Positions 1,465 to 41,501 of a DNA stretch of 64,000 bases are shown piece by piece. The stretch spans positions 3,067 through 67,066 of the forward strand of contig MFIU01000004.1 of NCBI GenBank assembly GCA_001778985.1. The letters run 5' to 3'. The position numbers and the translations under genes were made by a program. The notes beneath the pieces were generated by a model that saw only the letters and a program-made list of their open reading frames with translations, was not told the origin of the DNA and did not search any database. How positions within the stretch are numbered: the first letter of the stretch is position 1; every line of letters begins with the position of its first letter. The DNA is from Candidatus Giovannonibacteria bacterium RIFOXYD1_FULL_48_21 (GTDB taxonomy: Bacteria; Patescibacteriota; Minisyncoccia; JACPKW01; UBA11713).

Positions 1465-1769
1465 ATCAATTCCGTATAGTCATTTGCTTAATAATAACTC
1501 TACAATAATTTCTATATGGGGTCAAATTAAGCGTAGCAAGAAGGTGAAAAAGCTGTCAAGGTTTCTATAAAATTCTCTTTAGCCGCGCGCCAGTATATCT
1601 TTTTTGCTTAGGTTCATTCTTTTGCGATCGCTGAAGTATGAACCATTTTTGAATTTATAGTTTCAACGCTATAGCTGTCAGATTGCAAATTGGAAAACTA
1701 CCAAAAAAACCAGCTAAACAACTATCTCCAACCACTAGCCAGTGTAAAAGTTTTTATGAGAAGTGATGA

Positions 1770-2960
1770 TTAAGCCCCTAAAATGCCTTCGCTGAAGCGG
1801 TTTTCGGTGCCGATGAAAATGCCTTTTTTGCGCAAAGAAAAGCTCTCCAAAATTCCCAGCGCCCAAAAAAGGCTGATGAGGCTTGATCCGCCATAAGAGA
1901 GAAATGGCATCCCCAAGCCGGTTATCGGCAATACGCCCGAATTCATGCCGATATGAATCGCGGACTGAAAAAGCAGTAAAATCGCGAGCCCCGCCGCGTA
2001 AAGTTTTTCAAAATTTGATTCTCCGTAAATTCCAGCCCGCAGAACGCGCCAGATGATAATACTGAAAAAAAACAATAAAAATACGACGCCGAGAAAACCC
2101 CATTCTTCCGCGAAAGCCGCGAAAATAAAATCGGTTTCATGTTCCGGTAAAAATTCCAGCCGCGATTGGGTGCCAAAGCCTATGCCTTTTCCAAAAATTT
2201 CCCCCGAACCTATAGCGATAACCGACTGCTGGGCGTGATAACCCGCTCCACGGATGTCGCCTTGCGGATTTATAAAAGCGGTAATCCTTGTTTTTTGATA
2301 AGGCAATAAAAAAAAGTTCCAAGCGACAGTTGTTATCAATAAACCAGTAAAAAACAAAACAATGAGATGGCGCAGTTTTATTCCGCCAACTAAAGCCATG
2401 CCCAGCCAAATTGCTCCCAAAACAATTGCTGACCCCAAATCCGGCTGCAACATCACCAACGCCATCGGCACAGCCACATAAACGAACGAAATAAAGAGAT
2501 GCACGAATCTGGCAATCTCAACATGTCTTTTAGAAAAATATTTTGCCAAAATTAAAACCGAAACAGGTTTTAAGAGTTCCACCGGCTCAATGGTCACTCC
2601 GCCGATCTTGAGCCAGCTGGCGGCGCCTTTCACAGCATACCCTGTCAAAATCAAAAAAATAAGCGCGCCAACCAAAATAAAATATAAAATAAGCAAAAAA
2701 ATGCTGTTTGTTTTAAGGAAACTCCAATCGATAAAAATCGCGCTCATGAAAAATACCGCAGCCCCGGCCGATGCCCAAATAATTTGCCGGATAAAAAAAT
2801 AATCCTCGCCCAGACTCGGCCCGCTTAGCCCAAGCGAGGCGAGCGAGGCTGGCCCTCCTGCGCCGAATGATTTCATCGTGGCAAGCCCCAAAAGAACAAG
2901 CATCAGCGCCGCCAAAAGTAGAGTCCAATCAAGACTCCTCCACATGCGGCTGGGGTTCAT
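1770..2960 (-). CDS. ftsW: SEDS-family peptidoglycan polymerase FtsW/RodA
   Basis: Polytopic membrane protein with the C-terminal LPITGLGMPFLSYGGSSL motif diagnostic of FtsW/RodA/SpoVE. Start set to the internal ATG (MNPSRMW) abutting the upstream gene stop. Confidence 0.8.
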   Translation of the reverse strand: MNPSRMWRSLDWTLLLAALMLVLLGLATMKSFGAGGPASLASLGLSGPSLGEDYFFIRQIIWASAGAAVFFMSAIFIDWSFLKTNSIFLLILYFILVGALIFLILTGYAVKGAASWLKIGGVTIEPVELLKPVSVLILAKYFSKRHVEIARFVHLFISFVYVAVPMALVMLQPDLGSAIVLGAIWLGMALVGGIKLRHLIVLFFTGLLITTVAWNFFLLPYQKTRITAFINPQGDIRGAGYHAQQSVIAIGSGEIFGKGIGFGTQSRLEFLPEHETDFIFAAFAEEWGFLGVVFLLFFFSIIIWRVLRAGIYGESNFEKLYAAGLAILLLFQSAIHIGMNSGVLPITGLGMPFLSYGGSSLISLFWALGILESFSLRKKGIFIGTENRFSEGILGA

Positions 2961-4674: not shown

Positions 4675-4841
4675 ATCCTTTCAACCGGCGGCTAGCTCCC
4701 CCCGAGGAAGTATCACCCGCCTGCAACGCTATGTGTAGCATTGCGGGCAGGTCGCCACTACCGCGTTTTACCTGCCTCGCGTTGACGCGAGTCAAAGCGG
4801 GCTTCTCTGTCCCCGCACTAAAAATTTTAGACACTAAGTAT

Positions 4842-4968
4842 GGGCGGCTGCCTACTTTCCCCAAAAATGAGTATCATCGGCAGTACAGCGTTTTACTTCT
4901 CTGTTCGGAATGGCCCGCTTCGCCGAAGCGAGGCGAGGAAGAGGTAGTTCCACTGCCTCAAGCCACCC
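4842..4968 (-). rRNA. rrf: 5S rRNA
   Basis: Minus strand reads GGGUGGCUUGAGGCAGUGGAACUACC...CAUUCCGAACAGAGAAGUAAAACGCUGUACUGCCGAUGAUACUCAUUUUUGGGGAAAGUAGGCAGCCGCC. Loop C and the loop E-helix IV core match bacterial 5S. The ends pair (GGUGGCU/AGCCGCC). Contains an extra CGCUUCGGCGAAGCG hairpin. Confidence 0.8.
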
Positions 4969-5128
4969 AAACTTAATGTCCAAATTTTTAAAATTTCAGT
5001 GCGGGGCGGGTCGGAATGTTCCCGATTTGCCCACAAGTCCGCCAGCTGGCGGACGAGTGGCTGCAAATCGCAATCCCGCGAGTCATTCTGATGACTTTGC
5101 GGGAGGAAGACCTGCCTGCCGGCAGGCA

Positions 5129-5160: not shown

Positions 5161-5313
5161 AATGAAAAGATTTAATTTCGTAAGCACATTTTCTAACAAG
5201 ACGGCTCGATCTATTAGTACTCCTCGGCTGAAATCCTTGCGGATCTTACACCTGGAGCCTATCAACGTGGTAGTCTTCCACGGATCTGATAACGATTCCT
5301 AATCTTGGGGCGT

Positions 5314-5344
<31 letters not shown>

Positions 5345-6130
5345 ACTCAACGACATAGCTACCCTGCGGTGCTCCTGGCGGAACAGCAGGTAGACCAGAG
5401 GTCGCCTCCTTCCGGTCCTCTCGTACTAGGAAGAACCCCCCTCAAGAATCAACGAGTGCAGTAGATAGGAGACCAACCTGTCTCACGACGGTCTGAACCC
5501 AGCTCACGTACCTTTTTAATTGGCGAACAGCCAAACCCTTGGGAGCTTCTCCACCCCCAGGATAAGATGAGCCGACATCGAGGTGCCGAACTCCGCCGTC
5601 GATATGGACTCTTGGGCGGAACTAGCCTGTTATCCCCGGAGTAGCTTTTATCCGTTAATCTTCCACCGGTCCTACACCGAATGGTCGGTTCACTAGATTC
5701 TGCTTTCGCATCTGCTCGGCCTGACCGCCTCGCAGTTAAGCCGGCTTGTCCTCTTACAGGTCCAGCGCGATTTCCATCCGCGCTAAGCCGACCTTGATAA
5801 ACCCCTCCGTTACCTTTTAGGAGGGTTGCGCCCCACACAAACTGCCCACCAGACACTGTCCCCAAACGTTTTCTCCGTCGAGGTTAGAATATAAGTCCTT
5901 TAAGATGGGTATTTCACTGGTGACTCCGTCCCGCCCGAGAGCAGGACTTCAAAGTCTCCCCACTATGCTACGCATAAAAAATTCATACCCAATATCAAGT
6001 TGCAGTAAAGCTTCCGGGGTCTTTTCGTCTAACTGCACCTAACCGGCATCTTCACCGGTATTGTATTTTCACCGAGCGAATCCTCGAGACAGTCCCCCAG
6101 TCGTTACGCCTTTCGTGCGCGTCGGAACTC

Positions 6131-6861
6131 CATGTTAATCCACTATTTCTAATGGCACAGACTATATCTTCATCTCAACGTCTTGAGAATATCTTTTTGA
6201 CTATATTTTCTTTTGCCGCTTGGATTCATTTTGCAAGCAATCATGACTATCTTTTTTAATCCTGACACTCTTCGATGTTTCCCTTTCTTCATAAGGCGGC
6301 AAACTTGTCTGAATCGATAAAAATCTTTTATCTTTGGAGACAAGAGCGGATACTTCTCGAAATGTGGTATTACGCGGTCGATCAAATCGTTAAGACTTCT
6401 TACTTCATATTTAAGAGTCTTATCCGAAAGATCTCGTCGCATAAATCCGCACCCAAGAGTTTTCTGTATGAGATAAAGGACGTTGGCCCTTTCTTCATTC
6501 TGACTTATAGATAAACTTGGTTTGGTTTCCCATCCTACCAAGAATTTCTTTCGTCTTGAGAAAGATACACAAAAACTTCCTTCACCATCTACATATCCAG
6601 ATATATACTCGCGATAATTTCTCTTTTTGTTGAGAGCCGGCATGTTATAGATTCATTATACTACAAATCTATCTAGGTCGCCATTGATTAACGGCGACCT
6701 AAGTCGTTACGGGGTCAATCTCGACGCTATGGTCGGGACGACTTCCCACGGTATTATCCTGCCTTCATTGCTTGAGCCTTGTTACTCAAACTCCAGCGAG
6801 AACTTCACCGTTATAAGCCGGTGTTTCATTGCGGCATCGCTGCCGCATCGGGCAACTTCCT
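6131..6861 (-). mobile_element. group I intron in 23S rRNA at the E. coli ~1917 site (GUCGGGU | intron | GAGUUCCGAC)
   Basis: Exon sequence CCUUGUCGGGU...GAGUUCCGACGCGCACGAAAGGCG is contiguous with E. coli GUCGGGUAAGUUCCGACCUGCACGAAUGGCG once 731 nt are removed. The 5' exon ends in U and the insert ends in G. The insert carries a LAGLIDADG ORF on the rRNA strand. Confidence 0.75.
6170..6643 (-). CDS. LAGLIDADG homing endonuclease (single-motif, I-CreI-like)
   Basis: 157-aa ORF inside the 23S intron with YISGYVDGEGSF (the LAGLIDADG motif) near the N-terminus. Confidence 0.8.
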   Translation of the reverse strand: MPALNKKRNYREYISGYVDGEGSFCVSFSRRKKFLVGWETKPSLSISQNEERANVLYLIQKTLGCGFMRRDLSDKTLKYEVRSLNDLIDRVIPHFEKYPLLSPKIKDFYRFRQVCRLMKKGKHRRVSGLKKIVMIACKMNPSGKRKYSQKDILKTLR

Positions 6862-6878
6862 CACCCGACAAGGAATTG

Positions 6879-6914
<36 letters not shown>

Positions 6915-8440
6915 GACGAGGGCTTCGGACAGTCAGCCCCTCGACTCGGTGCTATGCACCTCGCTCGGGGTAAACCCTAGAAATCCAGGATTTATCCTGA
7001 GTGAGATACGCAGTATCGAATCGAAGGACCGCCATCGTTAACCTTCTCGCATTGGTCAGGCGTCACCCCCTATACATCCTCTTACGAGTTCGCAGGGAGC
7101 TGTGTTTTTGATAAACAGTCGCCAGGGGTACTTTCGCTGCGCCCCGCCTGCCATATATTTCTATACGTTGGCGGGGAGGCCTTATTCCGAAGTTACGGCC
7201 GCTTTTTTGCCGAGTTCCTTGAGGATCTCTCACTCGTTCGCCTGAGGCTACTCGCCTCACCCACCTGTGTCGGTTTTCGGTACGGTTTCCCTCTTCATAA
7301 TCTTAGAAGCTTTTCTAGGAAGGCTGCTTTGTTCCATTTCCTCCGCCGAGGCGGAAAATTTTTGCTCGACTAAGAGTTGCCAAAAGGCCGTCCCGAGATT
7401 TTCTACGGGACACTCCTCATCGCACAAACGCGAATCCAATAACACGCAGAACATACTAACCTTCGTCCCTTCATCGAAAAAGAAGGAAGTCACGGAATAT
7501 TAACCGTGTGTCCATTACCTGCGGCTTTCGCCATTGGCTTAGGACCGACTAACCCTTGGCTGACAATCATTGCCAAGGAAACCTTAGGTTTGCGGCGTGC
7601 CGGTTTTTCACCGGCATTGTGGTTACTTGTGCCAACATTCTCACTTCCCAGCGCTCCATCCCGGCTCACGCCGTGGACTTCACTGCACTAGGAACGCTCT
7701 CCTACCCCCCGCTTTACATTAATATTTCAAATGTTAGCGGAGCCTCACCTTCGGCACTCTCTTTAGTCCCGATTATCTGCGGCGCAAGGTCTCTTGACGA
7801 GTGAGCTGTTACGCACTCTTTGAAGGATGGCTGCTTCTAAGCCAACCTCCTCGCTGTCATTGAAACCTCACCGCCTCACTTACACTTAAGAGAGATTTTG
7901 GGGCCTTAGATTGAGATCTGGGCTGTTGCCCTCTCGACCGACGGAGCTTAGCCCCCGTAGTCTGACTGGCCGCCCAAAGCTACGCCATTCGGAGTTTGGT
8001 AGGTACGTCGAGATTTCTCCCTTTACGAACCTTCCAGTAGCTCTACCTGCGTAGTTGTAGCGGACGCTAGCCCAAAAGCTATTTCGGAGAGAACCAGCTA
8101 TTCCCAGGTTCGATTAGCTTTTCACTCCTACCCCCAACTCATCCGATAGCGTTGTACGACTAACCGGTGCGGACCTCCTCCCGCCTTTCGGCGGGATTCA
8201 TCCTGGCCAGGGGTAGCTCACCTGGCTTCGGGTCTATAGCAAACTGCAAACGCCCTATTAAGACTCGGTTTCCCTACGCCTCCTCCCGCTATAACGGAAT
8301 TAGACTAGCAGCGTACTATAACTCGTTGGCTCATTCTTCAATAGGCACCCCGTCACCCTGAACACGCTTGCGCGTGAACGGGCTCCGAGTCCTTGTAAGC
8401 ATATGGTTTCAGGTACTATTTCACCGCCCTCACCGGGCTG

Positions 8441-8479
<39 letters not shown>

Positions 8480-9237
8480 GTTTCGAAGTATTTAGCCTTA
8501 GGAGAGTAGTTCTCCCTGTTTCCTCCGAGCTTATCTTGTTCTCGAAGTACTCAAGAAAAAAGACAAGGAGCATAAAAGGTTTTTTAAGTACGGGGCTATT
8601 ACCCTCTTTGGCCGGCCTTTCCAGGGCCGTTCCCCTAAACAACTTCTATATTTCTAAACTCCCTTCCAGGAACATAGCTATACGCTCCGGAAAGTCTTTT
8701 TCTTACTACCCCCCGCCCACTAATCAAAAATAAATTCCTGAATAGTGAAGCGAGGTTTGGGCTTTTCCCCTTTCGCTCGCCGCTACTTAGGGAATGTCCC
8801 GCATTCCGCGGGATTGTTTTCTTTTCCTCTGGGTACTGAGATGTTTCACTTCCCCAGGTGCACGCAGTCCGAAGTTACTCGGAAAGCAATTCGACATTAC
8901 TCGAATTAGGTTACCCCATTCGGAAATCACCGGATCAAAGGTTGCTCGACACCTCCCCGATGCTTATCGCAGTCACGCCACGTCCTTCATCGTCTTCGAA
9001 ACCCTAGGCATCCACCATACGCTCTTATTTTCCGCTCCGATCTAAAAGCTCTCCAGCTTTAGATCAAAGTTATTTTTATACTTTATACATTGGTGCTCTT
9101 TAAATTTTTAAGGTTCTAACCTTATGAACTTATGAAAAAATCCGCCTAGAAGCGGACCTACATAGCGCAACTACGCGTGATTTTATCCGCTTCTATGTCT
9201 AAAGTTGATTAAATTAAGCCTCATAAGATTGTGCTTT

Positions 9238-34486: not shown

Positions 34487-34608
34487 AGAAAAATTATTAG
34501 CAAAACTCCGGCCACCACCCAGACGATGGCTCCGAGGCCCAAAAACCATCCCCAGAAGCCGAAGTCGCTCATCATCCCATACCCGCCAAAACCTCCATAA
34601 CCCATCAT
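34462..34608 (-). CDS. Gly-rich single-TM miniprotein
   Basis: MMGYGGFGGYGMMSDFGFWGWFLGLGAIVWVVAGVLLIIFLWKQITKR. Start uncertain. Overlaps the previous ORF by about 25 nt. Confidence 0.3.
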   Translation of the reverse strand: MMGYGGFGGYGMMSDFGFWGWFLGLGAIVWVVAGVLLIIFLWKQITKR

Positions 34609-34736
34609 AATATTATTTAAATTAATATTTAATAAAGACCTTATACAAATAATAACACCACTTGAGAAAAAACGCATTCCTCTTTATAGTAAGTTATTGC
34701 ATTCCCCGGTAGCTCAGCGGTAGAGCGACTCCCTGT

Positions 34737-35291
34737 GGAGAAAGTTCATTAAGTCTAGTGGTATACTTCAGTGAGTATGCCAGACAAAAGAACTTATGCC
34801 GATCGTGCAAAGTACTTAAGCAAGTACGTATCAAAACGCCGAAAGAAGCTGAAACAGATGGTTGTAGCATATAAGGGTGGTAAGTGCGTGCTTTGCGGGT
34901 ATAGCAAGTACGAAGGCGCATTTGATCTTCATCATATTGATGAGTCAAAAAAAGAATTCGGCTTATCGACAAGAGGCCTGACAAGATCTTGGGAAAAGAC
35001 AAAACGAGAAGCCGATAAGTGCGTTTTAGTATGTGCTAATTGTCATCGCGAATTGCACGGTGGTATTACGCAGCTTTCCGCCGCAAGGCGGATTGAAAAA
35101 CGAGGTGAATTGCTGGAAACCTAAATCCTTTTGGACAAGGCAATCAGCAGCCAAGTCCCGCCATCGGCGGGAAAGGTTCAGAGACTATCTCGAAAGAGAG
35201 TAGTCCGACACAAAGTCGGACGAAGCGCCTCGCCCCTGCAAAATCAGGGTGATGATATAGTCCACCCCCATAAGAAATTTTGGGACAAGTG
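34737..35291 (+). mobile_element. group I intron with HNH homing endonuclease ORF
   Basis: Core segment CAGCAGCCAAGTCC...GTTCAGAGACTATCTCGAAAGAGAGTAGTCCGACACAAAGTCGGACG matches group I P6/P7/P3/P8 consensus (compare Tetrahymena GUUCACAGACUAAAUGUCGGUCGG). Confidence 0.75.
34777..35124 (+). CDS. HNH homing endonuclease (intron-encoded)
   Basis: CVLCGYSKYEGAFDLHHID...CANCHRELH, an HNH motif with flanking Zn-binding Cys pairs. Confidence 0.75.
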   Translation: MPDKRTYADRAKYLSKYVSKRRKKLKQMVVAYKGGKCVLCGYSKYEGAFDLHHIDESKKEFGLSTRGLTRSWEKTKREADKCVLVCANCHRELHGGITQLSAARRIEKRGELLET

Positions 35292-35350
35292 TAAGGAGTG
35301 GGTCGCAGGTTCGAATCCTGCCCGGGGAGCCAAGAAACTAGATACGAACT

Positions 35351-35560
35351 ATGTCAAAGCAAGAAGCGACAATCGGCGAGAATATAAAGAAATACCGAAA
35401 CAAGCTCGGCATTTCTCAAGATGTCCTCTCAAAAAGGGCAAACCTTGCTTTTCATACCATCGCCAAGATTGAAGCGGGAGCGACGCCGAACCCGACCATT
35501 GAAACTGTTAAGAAAATCACGGATGCGCTCGGCGTATCGCTTGATGATTTAATGAAATAA
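35351..35560 (+). CDS. XRE-family HTH regulator (candidate RM controller protein)
   Basis: IGENIKKYRNKLGISQDVLSKRANLAFHTIAKIEAG is a Cro/C1-type HTH. The stop is translationally coupled to the next gene. Confidence 0.7.
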   Translation: MSKQEATIGENIKKYRNKLGISQDVLSKRANLAFHTIAKIEAGATPNPTIETVKKITDALGVSLDDLMK

Positions 35561-35561
35561 T

Positions 35562-35894
35562 ATGTCCGAGAGCCAAAAGAAAACAATCAAAGATTTACCA
35601 GAGGACGAGCGGCCGCGCGAGAAATTATTAAAATACGGCGCTGATAAATTGAGCAACACGGAACTTCTCGCCATACTCTTGCGGACTGGCACAAAGGGGA
35701 AATCAGCGATTGATATGGCGGAGGAAATTTTGAAAAGCGCCGGCGGCACATTTAAAGGTTTGGCCGGAAAAGACACAGAAGATATTACCAAAATGCTGGG
35801 CCTAAAAAATGCTAAAGTTGCTACGGTCGCCGCTGCTTTAGAAATTTCGCGTCGTGTTTCCAAGCAGATATTAAAAGATAAAGGAATTATCTAA
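35562..35894 (+). CDS. RadC-like (UPF0758) N-terminal HhH domain only, no JAB/MPN domain
   Basis: DLPEDERPREKLLKYGADKLSNTELLAILLRTGTKGKSAIDMAEEIL matches the RadC N-terminal signature. The ORF ends at 110 aa. Confidence 0.55.
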   Translation: MSESQKKTIKDLPEDERPREKLLKYGADKLSNTELLAILLRTGTKGKSAIDMAEEILKSAGGTFKGLAGKDTEDITKMLGLKNAKVATVAAALEISRRVSKQILKDKGII

Positions 35895-35895
35895 T

Positions 35896-37890
35896 ATGCC
35901 AAAACTACCTGATCCATTTTCTACAAAACCGACCAAAGAGCAGATTCAGACAACGCGCGAGATTTTGGACGCTATTTTTAAAGACCCCCAAGTCAAATAC
36001 GGCTTGCGGGAGTTTTCGAAACTAAAAATAGAGGAAGCTATCACGATTTTTGAAAAAGAAAAAGACAAATTTTATATCCACTGCCTCAAACGCGATAAAG
36101 ATATTGCGGTTTATGACAAAAGCAAAAATACCGGCAAGCCGGAAGAAATTATCCGTCAGCTTTGGCTTGTCAGATTGATTAGAGATTATCGCTACCCCCC
36201 CGATAGAATTGATGTTGAGGTTGACGTACATTTCGGCACAGAAGTCCACAGAAAAGCCGCCGATATAATGATTTACCAGGACGATAAGGAAACGCCCTAC
36301 ATTGTTTTTGAATTAAAGAAGCCGAAAGTTGAAGACGGGATAGATCAGTTAAAAAGCTATCTAAACTCCAAAGGTTCGCCGATTGGTGTTTGGTCCAACG
36401 GAAACGAGCGGGTTATTCTTTATCGTCCCTATCCGAAAAAATTTGAAAACAACTTGCGGGCAATCCCTCGCGTTGACCAGACAATTGAGGATGTTCTGGA
36501 AGAACGGCTTACCTTGGAAAAATTGACCTCCGACTATGATTTGAGCGAGCGCATTAAAATTTTGGAGGAACTGGTGCTTGCTAATGCCGGAGTTGATGTC
36601 TTCCAGGAAGTTTTCAAACTCATTTACGCAAAACTTTATGATGAAAAAGAAGCGCGCTCGCGCCCGGACAAAGAGGTTTATTTCCGAATGTCCAAGGACC
36701 CGAAATTTACTTTTGACATTGTTAATCGGCTATTCAAGGAATCTGTTTTGGAGTGGCCGGGAATTTTTACTCCTCACGATGAACTTCAATTATCACCCGA
36801 ACATCTTGCCGTTTGCGTTTCAGAGTTGGAAGACATAAAACTCCTTGATTCAAGCTTGGAAATTATTGACACCGCTTTTGAATATCTTTTGCCGGAAGTG
36901 GCGAAAGGCAAAAAAGGACAATACTTTACGCCTCGCCATGTGATTGATATGGCGGTAAAAATGCTCAATCCGCGCGATAAAGAATACATTGTTGACCCAG
37001 CGGCAGGGTCGGGCGGCTTTCTTATCCACGCTATGCAGTGGGTTTGGAGCCATGACTTGAAAGAAACGCCGCACGAAAAGCAGGTTGACTATGCCCGCCG
37101 GTATCTTTTCGGCATTGATTTTGACGATAAGCCGGTAAAAATCTCCCGCGCCTTGATGCTTATTGCCGGAGACGGCCGCTCGCATATTTTCAAACTTAAT
37201 TCTCTTAATCCGAAAGAATGGCAAGGTTCTGACTCTGAAAAAGAAAATGCGAGAGCAGAACTTCGCAAACTACTTCTTAAAACCGGTGATTACGAAGCAG
37301 ACCGAAACAACGAGGAAAATTTCCGCAGTTTTGCTTTTGATGTTTTACTTACCAATCCGCCGTTTGCCGGAAAAATCAAAGAGCAAATGCTATTGCGAGA
37401 GTATGAACTAGCCAAAAACAAAAAAGGTAAAATTCCTAAACAAGTCGGCCGCGATCTTCTTTTCATTGAGCGGGCGCTTCAACTAATAAAGCCCGGCGGG
37501 CGTTTAGCAATCGTCCTCCCCCAAGGCAAGCTAAACAACACGAATACCGAATACATCCGCCAGTGGTTGTTAGGTAGGGCGCGAGTTTTAGCGGTTGTCG
37601 GATTGCATGGTAACACCTTCAAACCGCATACCGGCACTAAAACCTCTCTATTATTTTTGCAGAAATGGGGCGGCGAAGCCGGAAGGCCAGAAGACGATTA
37701 CCCAATTTTTATGGCAACTTCCAAAAACTCTGGAAAAGATAATTCCGGAGAATATGTCTATAAAAAAGATGCGAAAGGAAATTTTGTTTTGGACGAACGC
37801 GGCCGCCGAATTTTACATCACGACTTGGATGAAGTTGCCGAGACATTCGTCAAATTCGCCAAAGAACAAAAATTTAGTTTTTGGAAATAA
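35896..37890 (+). CDS. restriction-modification protein: HsdR_N-like PD-(D/E)xK nuclease domain fused to gamma-class N6-adenine DNA methyltransferase (HsdM / type IIB A-subunit-like)
   Basis: N-terminal ADIMIYQDDKETPYIVFELKKPKVEDGIDQLKSY (D...ELK pattern of HsdR_N). MTase motif I VDPAAGSGGFL and motif IV LLTNPPF. Confidence 0.75.
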   Translation: MPKLPDPFSTKPTKEQIQTTREILDAIFKDPQVKYGLREFSKLKIEEAITIFEKEKDKFYIHCLKRDKDIAVYDKSKNTGKPEEIIRQLWLVRLIRDYRYPPDRIDVEVDVHFGTEVHRKAADIMIYQDDKETPYIVFELKKPKVEDGIDQLKSYLNSKGSPIGVWSNGNERVILYRPYPKKFENNLRAIPRVDQTIEDVLEERLTLEKLTSDYDLSERIKILEELVLANAGVDVFQEVFKLIYAKLYDEKEARSRPDKEVYFRMSKDPKFTFDIVNRLFKESVLEWPGIFTPHDELQLSPEHLAVCVSELEDIKLLDSSLEIIDTAFEYLLPEVAKGKKGQYFTPRHVIDMAVKMLNPRDKEYIVDPAAGSGGFLIHAMQWVWSHDLKETPHEKQVDYARRYLFGIDFDDKPVKISRALMLIAGDGRSHIFKLNSLNPKEWQGSDSEKENARAELRKLLLKTGDYEADRNNEENFRSFAFDVLLTNPPFAGKIKEQMLLREYELAKNKKGKIPKQVGRDLLFIERALQLIKPGGRLAIVLPQGKLNNTNTEYIRQWLLGRARVLAVVGLHGNTFKPHTGTKTSLLFLQKWGGEAGRPEDDYPIFMATSKNSGKDNSGEYVYKKDAKGNFVLDERGRRILHHDLDEVAETFVKFAKEQKFSFWK

Positions 37891-37899
37891 ATTACTCTT

Positions 37900-38871
37900 A
37901 TGAATACTGAAGAATATAAAAAAATAGATTGGAACAAACTACTTCGTAAGGACTTGGGCGAGTATAGTTTGGAAGTGGCGAAGCCAAATCTCGACAGAAT
38001 AAAGTCGATATTTGACGAGATTTTGAATTATCCAAACCTCGATCAGCTATCTGATAATTTTAAAAATCAGATTCAATCACAACTTAATTCCTTGGTGCAA
38101 TTTGCGAATCAGATTGTAAATAACTTTCAAAATACGAGTGAGCGTCAAACTTGGATCAATAATATAAAAAATAAGGAGTTCGAAGTTTATCAAAATCTCT
38201 CAAATATCTATGGGTATATAAAGGATTTTGATCCGGCAAGAGATGAACGGCTGAAAGATGTTATTAAAAAGTCAGAGGAACGTATAAAAAAGTTAAATGA
38301 GGATTTAAGTAAAACAGAAGCTCTTTTGCAGCAGGCGCAGAAAAAGGCAGTTCAAAGCGAAGTAATGGAATATGGAAACTTCTTTGGAAATGAGGCGGTA
38401 AAAAACGAGAGAACGGCAAAAATAAACCGATGGCTAATGTTCGGAAGTGTTGCTTTAACTGCTGTGCTCTCTGTTATCTTTCTACAAAACATCAAATTTG
38501 TTTCATCAGAAGAAATGACATTTTTTGAAAATGTCCTACAAACTATAAATGCACAAAACATACTTATAAAGTTTGTTTTGCTCTCGCTGGGCGGTTTCTT
38601 GATTGCTCATTTTTCAAAAGTACATTCAACGGAGAAAAACTTGTATAACCTCAATATCCAGCGACAAAATGCGCTTAATTCTCATAAACAAATTCTTGAT
38701 TCAGTAGTTGCTACTGAAAGTGAAAATGAGAAAGAAGTTAGAAACGCGATTTTACTTGAACTTACTAAAGCAATTTTTGCTAACCATGAGACCGGTTACT
38801 TGAAGGGTTCTAAAGATAATCCTGGGCCAGCAAGCCAGATAGTAGAGATAACAAAGACTTTACCGAAGTAA
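37900..38871 (+). CDS. hypothetical coiled-coil protein with two TM helices, embedded between the M and S genes
   Basis: 323 aa. About 170-aa Asn/Gln/Lys-rich coiled-coil N-domain, helices WLMFGSVALTAVLSVIFL and ILIKFVLLSLGGFLIAHF, and a 90-aa C-tail. No family. Confidence 0.5.
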   Translation: MNTEEYKKIDWNKLLRKDLGEYSLEVAKPNLDRIKSIFDEILNYPNLDQLSDNFKNQIQSQLNSLVQFANQIVNNFQNTSERQTWINNIKNKEFEVYQNLSNIYGYIKDFDPARDERLKDVIKKSEERIKKLNEDLSKTEALLQQAQKKAVQSEVMEYGNFFGNEAVKNERTAKINRWLMFGSVALTAVLSVIFLQNIKFVSSEEMTFFENVLQTINAQNILIKFVLLSLGGFLIAHFSKVHSTEKNLYNLNIQRQNALNSHKQILDSVVATESENEKEVRNAILLELTKAIFANHETGYLKGSKDNPGPASQIVEITKTLPK

Positions 38872-38873
38872 TC

Positions 38874-40238
38874 ATGCAGTATTCAATAATCCAAAAATCA
38901 CGACTTGAAGGTGGCCTACGGCTAGACGCGGAATTTTACCATCCGGAAAAATTAGAGGCGATGGAAAAGTTATCTAAATTCGGCATTAGCACTATTGCCG
39001 AGAATTTTCGGAACGTAAAAGAAACTTTTAACCCCCTCCGACATAAGTTAGCTACCACCCCCGCTCGCGTTTTTGATTTGTCTGATGTGAGTTCTTTTCT
39101 ACTGGAAGCAGGAGCAAAAGTAGAAAAAGCCGATGAAGTCGGCTCTACAAAAAAGATTATTCGCCAAAATGATGTTTTGATTTCTCGCTTGAGGCCTTAT
39201 CTCAAGGAAGTTTCTTTTGTGGGGTTTAATGAGGTTCAAAAACTGGCTTCAACCGAGTTTGTGGTTTTACGAAAAAAGAAGGATTCAAAGTTTCCTCCGC
39301 AAGCCCTTTTTGCATTTTTAACAACAGACGAAGTTCAAAATATTTTATTCTGGAGTCAAGGAGGAACAGAACATCCTCGCTTTTCCGAAAATCTTTTGAT
39401 GGGCTTAAAATTGCCGAAAACTTCGGAAAAGATGGCAGAAAGTATCGTAGATGATGTTAACGGCACTTACAAAAATTATCTGATATCACAAAATCTTTAC
39501 TCTCAAGCCGAGGATTTGCTGTTGGAAGAATTAGGATTGAAAGATAAAGATTTTGAGATTAAGGACGATTTGGCTTATATCGTCAATCTTTCTGAAATAA
39601 AATCCAACCATCGCGCTGACGCCGAATACTTCCAGCCGAAGTACGAAAACATTATGTCTCTAATTCGCGCGAATGGTGGAACAATGCTTGGCGATTTAGC
39701 AACGATGAAAAAAGGCATTGAGCCGGGGAGTGAGGTATATCAAGATGAGGGCAAACTATTTATTCGTGTAAGCAGCTTGTCTAAAAATGGGCTTGAAGAC
39801 AAAGACCAAAAGTATTTAAGCGATGAATTGTATCAGAAGTTAAAGAAAAATTACGAGCCGAAAGTTGGCGAGATTTTACTAACCAAAGACGCAACGCCAG
39901 GCACCGCTTATGTAGTGAAAGAGCCGATTGAGGGGATTGTTTCGAGCGGCATTTTACGCTTGAAGTTAAAGAATGAAAAGGTGGAAAATGAATATCTGGC
40001 ATTGTGTCTTAATTCCGTAATCGGACAAACTCAAGCGGAGCGCGATGGTGGGGGTTCTATCATTACACACTGGAGACCGGAACAAATCAAAAATGTTTTA
40101 ATTCCGATTTTACCCAAACCCACCCAGCAGAAAATCGCCGACTTAGTCCAAAAATCCCACGAAGCCCGCTCAAAAGCAAAACAACTTTTAGAACAAGCCA
40201 AATATAAAGTTGAACAATTGATTGAATCTAAAAAATAA
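38874..40238 (+). CDS. hsdS: type I-like specificity subunit HsdS (two target-recognition domains)
   Basis: Internal duplication with conserved LDAEFYHPEKLEAMEKL and ADAEYFQPKYENIMSLI spacer motifs typical of HsdS. Confidence 0.75.
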   Translation: MQYSIIQKSRLEGGLRLDAEFYHPEKLEAMEKLSKFGISTIAENFRNVKETFNPLRHKLATTPARVFDLSDVSSFLLEAGAKVEKADEVGSTKKIIRQNDVLISRLRPYLKEVSFVGFNEVQKLASTEFVVLRKKKDSKFPPQALFAFLTTDEVQNILFWSQGGTEHPRFSENLLMGLKLPKTSEKMAESIVDDVNGTYKNYLISQNLYSQAEDLLLEELGLKDKDFEIKDDLAYIVNLSEIKSNHRADAEYFQPKYENIMSLIRANGGTMLGDLATMKKGIEPGSEVYQDEGKLFIRVSSLSKNGLEDKDQKYLSDELYQKLKKNYEPKVGEILLTKDATPGTAYVVKEPIEGIVSSGILRLKLKNEKVENEYLALCLNSVIGQTQAERDGGGSIITHWRPEQIKNVLIPILPKPTQQKIADLVQKSHEARSKAKQLLEQAKYKVEQLIESKK

Positions 40239-40258
40239 TAATGTTAATTTTATAAATT

Positions 40259-41179
40259 ATGGCCAACTTATATTGGAAAAAGGATAAAAAAATATTTGCT
40301 GCCACAGAAACTCCATTTAAAACAGAAGAGGAGCTTGAGCATTATCTTTTAGATACGCGAGGAATTCTTAGCGATATTTATATTTTAAATAGACAAGTGA
40401 GGGCGAGGGCGGTTTCTGGTATAGAAATTCCGGACATGGTTGGAGTGGATAGCGAAGGAACGATTGTGATTATTGAGAACAAAAATATTCCCGTTGATGA
40501 AAAAATTATTTCGCAAGTGCTTAATTATGCACTTTGGGCAGAAGCAAATCCAGATTCAATAAAGAATCTTTGGCTTGAAGCCGAACAAGAGGGCACAGAG
40601 CCCGAGTGGGACAACCTACAAATTCGCATTATTATTGTCGCGCCTGAAATAAAACAACACTTGGCAAAATTTATATCGAAAATAGGATACCCGATCGATT
40701 TATTAGAAATCAAAAAATTCAACATAGGTAAAGACGAATTTATAGTTCTTAATAAGATTGAGGCCAATGTTTTTACTGCAAAGCCGGTTCATGGAAAAAG
40801 GAGCTATGATATCGCTTACTACGCAAAAGGGCATAATAAAGAGAGTGTTAAAAAATTTGAACAAGTTGTAAATCGCGTTGAGAGTTTTATTCACAAAAAT
40901 GGATGGAAATTGGAAAAGAAATTTAATCAAGGATATATAGGTTTCAAATACGGCTTCCCATTGGTTTTTGGTATCCAATGGCTTGGAAGTAGGTCATTTG
41001 GTTTCTTTTTCAAAATGCCTAAATCAAAAATGAAGAAAATCATTGTCCCTGGCCTTGAGTTTAGAGGATATATTGATAGGTGGAGTCAAGTTGAATACAA
41101 AATTAACTCGCCCGATTTTGATATTAAAAAATTAACTCCCTTATTTTTGGCTTCCTACAAATACATAAGGGGGGGGTAA
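40259..41179 (+). CDS. PD-(D/E)xK nuclease-fold protein with uncharacterised C-terminal domain
   Basis: IPDMVGVDSEGTIVIIENKNIPVDEKIISQVLNYALW fits the D-x(n)-E-x-K restriction-endonuclease-like core. About 170-aa C-terminal domain unknown. Confidence 0.5.
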   Translation: MANLYWKKDKKIFAATETPFKTEEELEHYLLDTRGILSDIYILNRQVRARAVSGIEIPDMVGVDSEGTIVIIENKNIPVDEKIISQVLNYALWAEANPDSIKNLWLEAEQEGTEPEWDNLQIRIIIVAPEIKQHLAKFISKIGYPIDLLEIKKFNIGKDEFIVLNKIEANVFTAKPVHGKRSYDIAYYAKGHNKESVKKFEQVVNRVESFIHKNGWKLEKKFNQGYIGFKYGFPLVFGIQWLGSRSFGFFFKMPKSKMKKIIVPGLEFRGYIDRWSQVEYKINSPDFDIKKLTPLFLASYKYIRGG

Positions 41180-41277: not shown

Positions 41278-41501
41278 GAGCCGGAAGCGAAGCGTCAGAA
41301 ATCAGTGTCAGGATTTTCGCGAAAAAAAGTTCGGATTTCGTTCAGGGTGTGGAGCCAGTAGCAAACTTAAGTCATTTTCAGAAAAATTTTTGCGTGCGAC
41401 GCAAAGCGTCGCCCATTGTTTTGCGGGGATTTCTTCAACTTTTTTATTTCGTAAAGTCAGGTTCGAGCCGAATATTTTTTGGAGAACTATAAATAATTTT
41501 T

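Follow-up and report, generated by a model that had tools for sequence, protein, structure and literature searches.

We analysed a 64-kb stretch of DNA from a groundwater genome of Candidatus Giovannonibacteria (the window, to which all coordinates refer) and the split transfer RNA (tRNA) gene within it. The gene is very likely a functional tRNA-Asn(GUU) gene with a mobile, self-splicing IA-type group I intron between positions 35 and 36, and the intron carries an HNH nuclease gene. The IA-like intron is 555 nt long (34737..35291, forward strand) and is delimited by an Rfam match, the exon junction, the P1 helix and covariation. Since 23S and 5S ribosomal RNA (rRNA) genes were found inside the window in an Rfam scan, the window represents chromosomal DNA. 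The product of the open reading frame (ORF) in the intron is 100% identical to a hypothetical protein encoded by Candidatus Giovannonibacteria RIFCSPHIGHO2_01_FULL, of a lineage within the Patescibacteria group. Introns of subgroup IA at position 35/36 of tRNA-Asn(GUU) have been described in Patescibacteria by Nakagawa, Amikura, Omae and Suzuki (bioRxiv July 2025, 10.1101/2025.07.03.662931; mSystems January 2026, PMC13011429). The element in the window is a further member of this published class, from a draft genome, and is in that sense already known. Biologically it is one more example of the class and opens no new question by itself.

The tRNA-Asn gene and its exons

The first exon (34703..34736, forward strand) is 34 nt long and ends in CTGT. 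It provides the 5' strand of the acceptor stem, the D arm, the 5' strand of the anticodon stem and the loop nucleotides C32, U33, G34 and U35. The second exon (35292..35332, forward strand, 41 nt) starts with TAAGG and contributes U36, A37 and A38, the 3' strand of the anticodon stem, the variable loop, the T arm, the 3' strand of the acceptor stem, G73 and an encoded CCA. The joined exons, TCCCCGGTAGCTCAGCGGTAGAGCGACTCCCTGT+TAAGGAGTGGGTCGCAGGTTCGAATCCTGCCCGGGGAGCCA, amount to 75 nt and are folded by ARAGORN into a tRNA-Asn(gtt) cloverleaf with a 7-bp acceptor stem, a U1-A72 pair, G73 and the encoded CCA; the loop created by exon joining reads CUGUUAA. The first-pass annotation of this DNA had proposed that the two pieces rebuild a perfect Asn-type tRNA and that the 555-nt intron is preceded by U and has G as its last base. 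The ARAGORN fold bears out the former, and the bases at 34736 and 35291 are as claimed. A U1-A72 pair together with G73 fits the pattern of bacterial tRNA-Asn, a tRNA that would be charged with asparagine, or with aspartate and then amidated.

A promoter-like site (TTGAGA, 17 nt, TATAGT; 34662..34690, forward strand) ends 12 nt before the 5' end of the tRNA and agrees with the consensus at 10 of 12 positions. It is the sole site of such quality within 34550..35450 and probably serves as the promoter of the tRNA gene. In its default mode, ARAGORN reported tRNA-Val(CAC) alone for the 64-kb window, so the split tRNA-Asn gene is invisible to ordinary annotation; no second tRNA-Asn was found within the window. 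Standard tRNA finders thus either overlook the split gene or, as described below, call it tRNA-Thr. A genome of this kind would appear to be without tRNA-Asn, and completeness estimates for Patescibacteria would therefore be distorted.

Position of the splice junction

When run with intron detection, ARAGORN shifted the junction 2 nt in the 5' direction (CCCT|GTGGA...ACAAG|TGTAAGG) and called a tRNA-Thr(UGU) gene with the intron between positions 33 and 34, in which case the spliced RNA would read CCCTTGTAAGG. The same output was obtained for about half of the related loci. Because the Thr junction also has U before the intron and G at the intron end, the 'U...G' rule alone cannot settle the matter.

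The P1 helix argues against the Thr junction. A U·G wobble pair in P1 marks the 5' splice site of group I introns. The 5' strand of P1 (34733..34737, forward strand) is made of C32, U33, G34 and U35 together with the first intron base, G+1, and pairs with the internal guide sequence C-GCAG, the 3' strand of P1 (35069..35073, forward strand). The guide sequence lies 333 nt into the intron and inside the ORF, where it is read as Thr-Gln (ACG CAG). U35 (34736), directly before the 5' splice site, has G35070 of GCAG as its wobble partner, whereas U33 stands opposite the A of GCAG in a Watson-Crick pair. The helix is plainly visible in relatives without an ORF, such as CUGU|CGAAG|GCAG in locus L011. 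Across 68 introns, the pair between intron position +1 and the base before GCAG is G:C in 47, A:U in 10, C:G in 3, U:G in 2 and U:A in 1 and is unpaired in 5 (63/68 paired). The register of P1 is fixed by this covariation of the pair beside the splice site.

The other end of the intron tells the same story. With a Thr-type junction, the last intron base would be A or C in many homologues (e.g. L013, L018, L024, L057 and L069); with the Asn junction, 87 of the 89 junction solutions across related loci have G directly ahead of TAA. The acceptor end, with U1-A72 and G73, likewise has the bacterial Asn and not the Thr pattern of tRNA identity elements. Uninterrupted genes provide a further comparison. 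A scan of metagenome contigs, with a search pattern for the Asn-type junction only, yielded 27 uninterrupted tRNA-Asn genes, four of which (L178, L182, L185 and L191) match both window exons at 98-100%. Exon 1 is 100% identical in all four; exon 2 is 100% identical in L178 and L185 and 98% identical over 59 nt in L182 and L191. The product of the Asn junction is 100% identical to native intron-less tRNA-Asn genes, which again contradicts the Thr junction.

ARAGORN and tFind are on record as making an identical two-base error, with Thr(UGU) 33/34 as the result (PMC13011429). The tRNA-Asn intron of GCA_016700035.1 self-splices in vitro precisely at 35/36, the junction having been confirmed for this homologue by sequencing of the splicing product, and a change of its terminal G to C blocks the reaction (PMC13011429). 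The ribozyme part of the window intron is 72% identical to that intron, which matches our family profile at E 3e-32. The tRNA-Thr reading thus retains next to no probability and is refuted for practical purposes. An intron between anticodon nucleotides 35 and 36, as had been proposed at the outset, is the position on which the P1 wobble, the P1 covariation, the intron ends of homologues and the intron-less genes agree.

The ribozyme core

A covariance-model search, suggested in the first-pass annotation as a check, aligned the full length of the Rfam group I model RF00028 (positions 1-253 of 253) to 35052..35284; the score is 83.5 bits at E 9e-20, as compared with a gathering score of 50. The sequences that had been quoted as group I core in the 3' part of the intron fall in J6/7-P7 and P7.1/P7.2. 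All elements of the core are on the forward strand. Of 69 introns examined, 68 have GCAG unchanged in the guide sequence; next come CUUYC and P2, a hairpin of the form UCCGCC GCAA GGCGGA (35077..35092) in which 6/6 pairs are changed on both sides and 97% of cells are paired. The 5' strand of P3 (35101..35107) was placed by the Rfam match and shows compensatory changes; its 3' strand (35226..35232) was placed by the Rfam match and the alignment, as were P8 (35233..35251), the 3' strand of P7 (35258..35263) and P9 (35267..35284). P4 (35111..35116 with 35144..35149) and P5/P5a (35119..35141, the location of the ORF stop codon) share compensatory changes across P4-P5, and P6/P6a (35151..35176) has them in P6a. 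The 5' strand of P7, GAGACUA (35181..35187), pairs with 35258..35263 to form the guanosine-binding helix. The last intron base, G35291, is the terminal guanosine (omega G), and the 3' splice site follows directly.

Between the 5' strand of P7 and the 3' strand of P3 lie two additional hairpins, P7.1 (35188..35199; 3/4 pairs changed on both sides) and P7.2 (35203..35221; 4/4 pairs changed on both sides). The Rfam model treats this stretch as an insertion. The predicted P7.1/P7.2 hairpins mark the intron as IA-like.

Covariation was tested in a MAFFT alignment, not fitted to structure, of 44 ribozyme parts that start at GCAG and stop at the terminal G. With a structure drawn by hand on the window row, a procedure that favours the drawn structure somewhat in the slid control, standard pairs were formed in 94.2% of cells as compared with 35-46% when the 3' partners were slid by 1-3 columns, and 37/56 pairs were changed on both sides as compared with 13-21/56. 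None of 500 shuffles matched the observed values in any of the five measures. Compensatory changes occur in P2, P3, P4-P5, P6a, P7.1, P7.2, P8 and P9. P7 is invariant (44/44, 100% paired) and therefore gives no covariation evidence either way. The window copy, the reference row of the 44-sequence alignment, has all invariant core positions intact.

An extension of P1 to tRNA position 31 was considered and rejected. G, C and A all occur at position 31, yet the base that follows GCAG is C throughout, so the two do not covary, and in the window they would form a C-C mismatch.

The HNH gene in the P1 loop

Because the guide sequence sits 333 nt into the intron, the P1 loop (L1; 34738..35068, forward strand) is 331 nt long. 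It carries the expression signals of the ORF and most of the ORF itself. In the ORF-less introns of L011, L023, L012, L021, L041 and L077, the P1 loop has only 5-8 nt (CUGU|5-8 nt|GCAG); the ORF was inserted into L1. The initial annotation had placed the ORF on the P1 side, which is right; more exactly, its place is within the P1 loop, and the stretch from the guide sequence to P5 is shared by ORF and ribozyme.

The ORF (34777..35124, forward strand) is of the HNH homing-endonuclease type and encodes 115 amino acids (aa; MPDKRTY...). It starts with ATG, ends with TAA (35122..35124) and is intact. ATG 34777 is the conserved start; GTG 34771, which gives a 117-aa reading, is merely the first start codon after a stop in the mechanically called ORF. 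Residues C39, C42, H54, H55, C88, N90, C91, H92 and H96 (117-aa numbering) are invariant in 23 diverse relatives and form the CxxC...HH...CxNCH...H pattern of zinc-bound HNH nucleases, with the catalytic His...Asn...His and two zinc-binding cysteine pairs. The Pfam HNH family (PF01844) is matched by 18 of the 23 family members at E <= 0.1, with a best value of 3.3e-05. When compared with solved structures, the family profile matched a group II intron maturase at E 0.0013, over the C-terminal CxxC...HH...NCH stretch, and McrA at E 0.0076; it had no detectable sequence similarity to the solved I-HmuI structure. The AlphaFold model has a pLDDT of 80.4, with values below 50 in the C-terminal tail (residues 105-117), and its best Foldseek matches are mostly HNH nucleases, a class with a beta-beta-alpha metal finger (Cap5, the Cas9 HNH domain, Gme HNH, McrA and T4 endonuclease VII; best E 0.046). 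The HNH assignment, which the first reading had made from the motif DLHHID...CANCHRELH, is supported by the motif with its invariant residues, by family-level matches and by fold matches.

In 68 ORFs, the majority-base frequency over codons 1-97 is 0.78/0.86/0.52 at codon positions 1/2/3. The third position is the least conserved, which indicates selection on the HNH protein. From codon 98 onward this difference disappears, with frequencies of 0.75/0.70/0.68 at the three positions. The last ~18 codons of the ORF traverse the guide sequence, P2, J2/3, P3 and P4, and the stop lies in P5. Free-standing relatives end shortly after the last catalytic His and are without the tail that overlaps the ribozyme. 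Given the third-position conservation, the low pLDDT of the tail and the shorter free-standing relatives, the C-terminal tail appears to be a side effect of the fusion with the ribozyme. Since the ORF overlaps the guide sequence through P5, one RNA molecule cannot have P1-P5 folded while a ribosome completes the ORF.

An extended -10-like motif, TGgTATACT (34759..34767, forward strand), ends 9 nt before the ATG, and the ORF has no Shine-Dalgarno sequence. A TA[TC]A[ACT]T motif ends 4-13 nt (mode 9) upstream of the ATG in 49 of 70 loci, in 32 of these with TG, and is found before free-standing copies of the ORF too; a Shine-Dalgarno-like motif precedes the ATG in 1 of the 70. The ORF would thus seem to be transcribed from a promoter of its own, into an mRNA with no leader or almost none.

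In the related locus L003 (ORF ~1501..1848), a TGA stands at an otherwise invariant Trp codon (R-S-W-E). It is either a sign of a decaying copy or a recoded stop.

Proposed splicing and homing

In the proposed mechanism, the tRNA gene would be transcribed from its own promoter at 34662..34690. C32-U35 and the first intron base would pair with the distant C-GCAG to form P1, in which U35 opposite G marks the 5' splice site, and the core from P3 to P9, P7.1 and P7.2 included, would fold. Free guanosine would then attack after U35, G35291 would dock in its place, and ligation of the exons would leave the CUGUUAA loop and the encoded CCA intact. That the window copy splices is expected from its homology to the GCA_016700035.1 intron, which was tested in vitro.

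Several observations weigh against the proposal as a whole. P1 in the window has only 5 bp, since position 31 is C and unable to extend the helix, and its loop measures 331 nt as compared with 5 nt in the intron tested in vitro. A candidate P10, UUA (35066..35068) with U36, A37 and A38, is weak at 3 bp; it is not conserved in homologues and is absent from ORF-less introns, and was therefore not counted as evidence. On the protein side, the window ORF scores 16.9 bits with PF01844, below the cutoff of 21.4, and no Foldseek match to a solved structure reached E <= 0.001.

The short P1, the 331-nt L1 and the overlap of ORF and core, the last two of which could hinder folding, would be understandable if the tRNA gene were dead, with a decayed or non-splicing insert, and if the cell used another tRNA-Asn gene or did without this one. 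This is most improbable in view of the intact gene: every invariant core position is preserved and the exons are perfect. The locus has also been kept. On 23 of 23 contigs read from other assemblies, the ORF recurs with the same neighbour genes, and 61 index blocks list the protein. No other tRNA-Asn was found in the 64-kb window, and the intron-bearing gene is usually the only copy in complete Patescibacteria genomes (PMC13011429).

For a functional, splicing gene, the role of the HNH protein can be considered next. Cleavage of intron-less tRNA-Asn genes close to the insertion site is the most likely activity of the nuclease; repair from an intron-bearing copy would then spread the intron and the nuclease gene together (homing). 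We infer uninterrupted tRNA-Asn genes as the target into which the nuclease would copy itself with the intron because related organisms have empty alleles whose exons are identical and because the family is tied to tRNA-Asn genes. The intron seems to be fixed in this population, with no empty sites left for homing, and many intron nucleases decay after fixation. The protein may then have become inactive, as the TGA codon of L003 might suggest for a relative, or have been kept for another purpose, e.g. helping the ribozyme fold, in an intron that still splices. We consider this unlikely, though less so than a dead tRNA gene. The catalytic and zinc-binding residues are invariant across the 23 diverse members, and the codon-position conservation is that of purifying selection. 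Moreover, intron-less alleles with identical exons occur in related organisms, and free-standing relatives beside tRNA-Asn in viral contigs and in Patescibacteria, described below, point to an active, mobile nuclease lineage. A homing nuclease in a splicing intron is the reading we retain.

Relatives in bacterial genomes

The ORF has ~984 protein-cluster relatives at 60-80% identity. With one genome scanned per species, at least 562 species-level genomes, from many lineages of Patescibacteria and including three labelled Omnitrophota, encode a relative. The following counts refer to 80 loci fetched from these genomes, several of which are cut by contig ends. By a strict script, the ORF lies inside a split tRNA-Asn gene in 62 of the 80, in introns of 499-712 nt, and ARAGORN added 4 more. 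In L011, L012, L016, L021, L023, L041, L053, L056 and L077 (ORF ~1501..1820), the ORF is free-standing; a tRNA-Asn gene 70-110 nt away has an ORF-less group I intron (192-257 nt) or no intron. L011 and L023 have a tRNA-Asn gene with an ORF-less intron of 257 or 223 nt and the free-standing ORF ~110 nt later; in L012, L021, L041 and L077 the free-standing ORF is ahead of a tRNA-Asn gene with an ORF-less intron; in L016 and L053 it stands beside an uninterrupted tRNA-Asn gene.

The ribozyme itself varies among these loci. L025, L026, L041, L044, L047 and L079 have another, more compact core (GGGATAACGGTGAA...GTAGAGACTAGATACC) without P7.1 and P7.2, which RF00028 did not detect at its gathering score. 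A third core variant, in L012 and L021, was detected by RF00028. The compact-core introns share the 35/36 site of tRNA-Asn, the GCAG-P2 module and the HNH family. Because the compact and third-variant cores share the site and the HNH family, one nuclease family is combined with several ribozyme cores.

The loci from the genomes labelled Omnitrophota, L049, L050 and L065 (one of them on a 312-kb contig), have the same arrangement of intron and HNH gene in tRNA-Asn.

Relatives in viral contigs and phages

Among the matches listed, the closest relatives of the ORF outside Patescibacteria are in viral contigs and phages. At least 561 viral-contig stretches encode relatives, at ~50-60% identity. 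We examined the 80 closest of these (L081..L160, from IMG/VR). In 62 of the 80 loci, a free-standing ORF lies within a tRNA array at no more than 250 nt from tRNA-Asn(GTT), usually 10-30 nt upstream of it. Asn accounts for 75 of the 518 tRNAs of the viral loci overall, as compared with 63 of the 105 immediate neighbours of the ORF. A ribozyme was found in one of the 80 loci (L081); the others carry free-standing ORFs. Relatives were also found in 414 records of cultured phages, three of which were inspected. In Aeromonas phage LAh_6 (L199), the HNH gene directly follows a tRNA-Asn gene that is not annotated in the record. In Bacteroides phage DAC15 the relative is among tRNA genes and not adjoining Asn, and in Yersinia phage fHe-Yen9-04 it is beside a single tRNA-Ser. 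With neither of the latter two copies beside tRNA-Asn, a strong link to this gene is confined to the closest relatives. A literature search on free-standing HNH genes in phage tRNA clusters found nothing specific to tRNA-Asn.

These arrangements raise the possibility that the HNH gene belongs to one nuclease lineage, specialised on tRNA-Asn, that moves between phage tRNA arrays and Patescibacteria chromosomes and has all stages of its history preserved. We put this forward tentatively, with somewhat less than an even chance in our judgement. In a first stage, a free-standing nuclease would reside beside an uninterrupted tRNA-Asn gene, as in viral contigs and in L016 and L053. In a second, the free-standing nuclease would have as its neighbour a tRNA-Asn gene already interrupted, at the presumed cut site, by an intron without an ORF (L011, L012, L021, L023, L041 and L077). 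In a third, represented by the window, the nuclease would be inside the P1 loop with its 3' end fused to the ribozyme, having perhaps come in as a self-contained cassette that brought a promoter and a leaderless start of its own.

Bonocora and Shub reportedly proposed a pathway in which a free-standing nuclease targets the insertion site of an intron. Judged by gene arrangements only, the loci described here would correspond to the series of stages that this pathway predicts. T4 SegB is similar to the viral relatives of the window ORF in being a free-standing nuclease in a phage tRNA gene cluster, but SegB is a GIY-YIG enzyme whereas the family studied here is of the HNH type. The free-standing family beside tRNA-Asn in viral tRNA arrays offers a testable natural series for the association of a nuclease with a group I intron. 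If the lineage is as proposed, the intron may shield the single tRNA-Asn gene of the host from cutting by phage-borne relatives.

Comparison with known group I introns

The published survey covered 95 complete genomes. It assigned 25 of 28 introns at 35/36 to subgroup IA, and four tRNA-Asn introns at this site carry HNH (PF01844) genes; HNH-bearing IA introns at 35/36 were found only in Patescibacteria (PMC13011429). The window element shares with those introns the host tRNA and its anticodon, the 35/36 site, the phylum, the IA-type core, P1 (CUGU/GCAG) and the mis-call as Thr(UGU). It differs in its origin, a draft genome of Candidatus Giovannonibacteria, a name not in the main text of that paper, and in its L1, which has 331 nt and an ORF, whereas the intron tested in vitro has no ORF and an L1 of 5 nt. 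The position of the ORF in L1, its overlap with the core, the -10-like motif, the free-standing copies and the link to viral tRNA arrays are not in the main text of PMC13011429. Nuclease-bearing tRNA introns were few in the survey, 12 of 333, and its authors expect more in draft genomes (PMC13011429). In contrast, at least 562 species-level genomes encode relatives of the ORF, which makes the HNH-bearing form common in public genomes. It is far commoner than the published count from complete genomes implies.

The classical group I introns of bacterial tRNAs are those of cyanobacterial tRNA-Leu(UAA), tRNA-fMet, Azoarcus tRNA-Ile(CAU) and Agrobacterium tRNA-Arg(CCU). The first-pass annotation had named Leu, fMet, Ile and Arg as the known hosts and Asn as uncommon, a statement that is fair when measured against the classical list; the list, however, is out of date, introns at 35/36 of tRNA-Asn having been published (PMC13011429). 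In common with the classical introns, the window intron is a group I intron in the anticodon loop, builds P1 from anticodon-loop nucleotides, has U·G at the 5' splice site and ends in G. The classical introns are of the IC3 type, ~200-250 nt long and mostly without ORFs, and they lie at 33/34, 34/35 or 36/37 (PMC13011429), whereas the window intron is IA-like with P7.1 and P7.2, lies at 35/36 and has an ORF in L1.

The IA-type core with P7.1/P7.2 and a nuclease of the HNH family are features that the window intron shares with IA introns of phages, such as those of I-HmuI in Bacillus phage SPO1 and I-TevIII in nrdB of phage RB3. Phage IA introns with HNH nucleases lie in protein-coding genes, and it is from P6, P8 or P9 elements that their ORFs loop out. 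In the window, by contrast, the host is a tRNA gene, and the ORF is in L1 and reads through into P5.

Other features of the window

Directly 3' of the tRNA gene is a block of genes on the forward strand (35351..41179). By domain matches, it encodes an Xre-type helix-turn-helix (HTH) protein (35351..35560), a protein with a RadC N-terminal domain (35562..35894), an HsdM-like N6 methylase with an HsdR_N domain (35896..37890) and an HsdS-like specificity protein (38874..40238); two unknown ORFs are also included. In L185, an identical intron-less tRNA-Asn gene is followed after ~20 nt by sequence 95% identical to window 41375..41484. No tRNA repeat flanks the ~6-kb block in the window, and a search of the window for partial tRNA repeats, as a possible attachment site of the block, found none. 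Because L185 joins tRNA-Asn almost directly to the counterpart of 41375..41484, the restriction-modification-like block looks like an insertion next to the tRNA gene.

The rRNA genes of the window contain insertions as well. The 23S rRNA gene (5195..9039, reverse strand) is 3845 nt long as compared with 2925 nt in the model. An ORF of 157 aa within it (6170..6643, on the rRNA strand) matches LAGLIDADG_1 with 88 bits, and a sub-threshold group I match (23.6 bits, E 0.005) lies at 6139..6268. The insert, especially 6139..6643, is probably an rRNA intron with a LAGLIDADG nuclease, of a kind known for this phylum. The 5S rRNA match (4839..4970, reverse strand) scores 44.9 bits as compared with a gathering score of 38 and has an insertion of 30 nt where the model has 6 nt, giving a gene of 132 nt.

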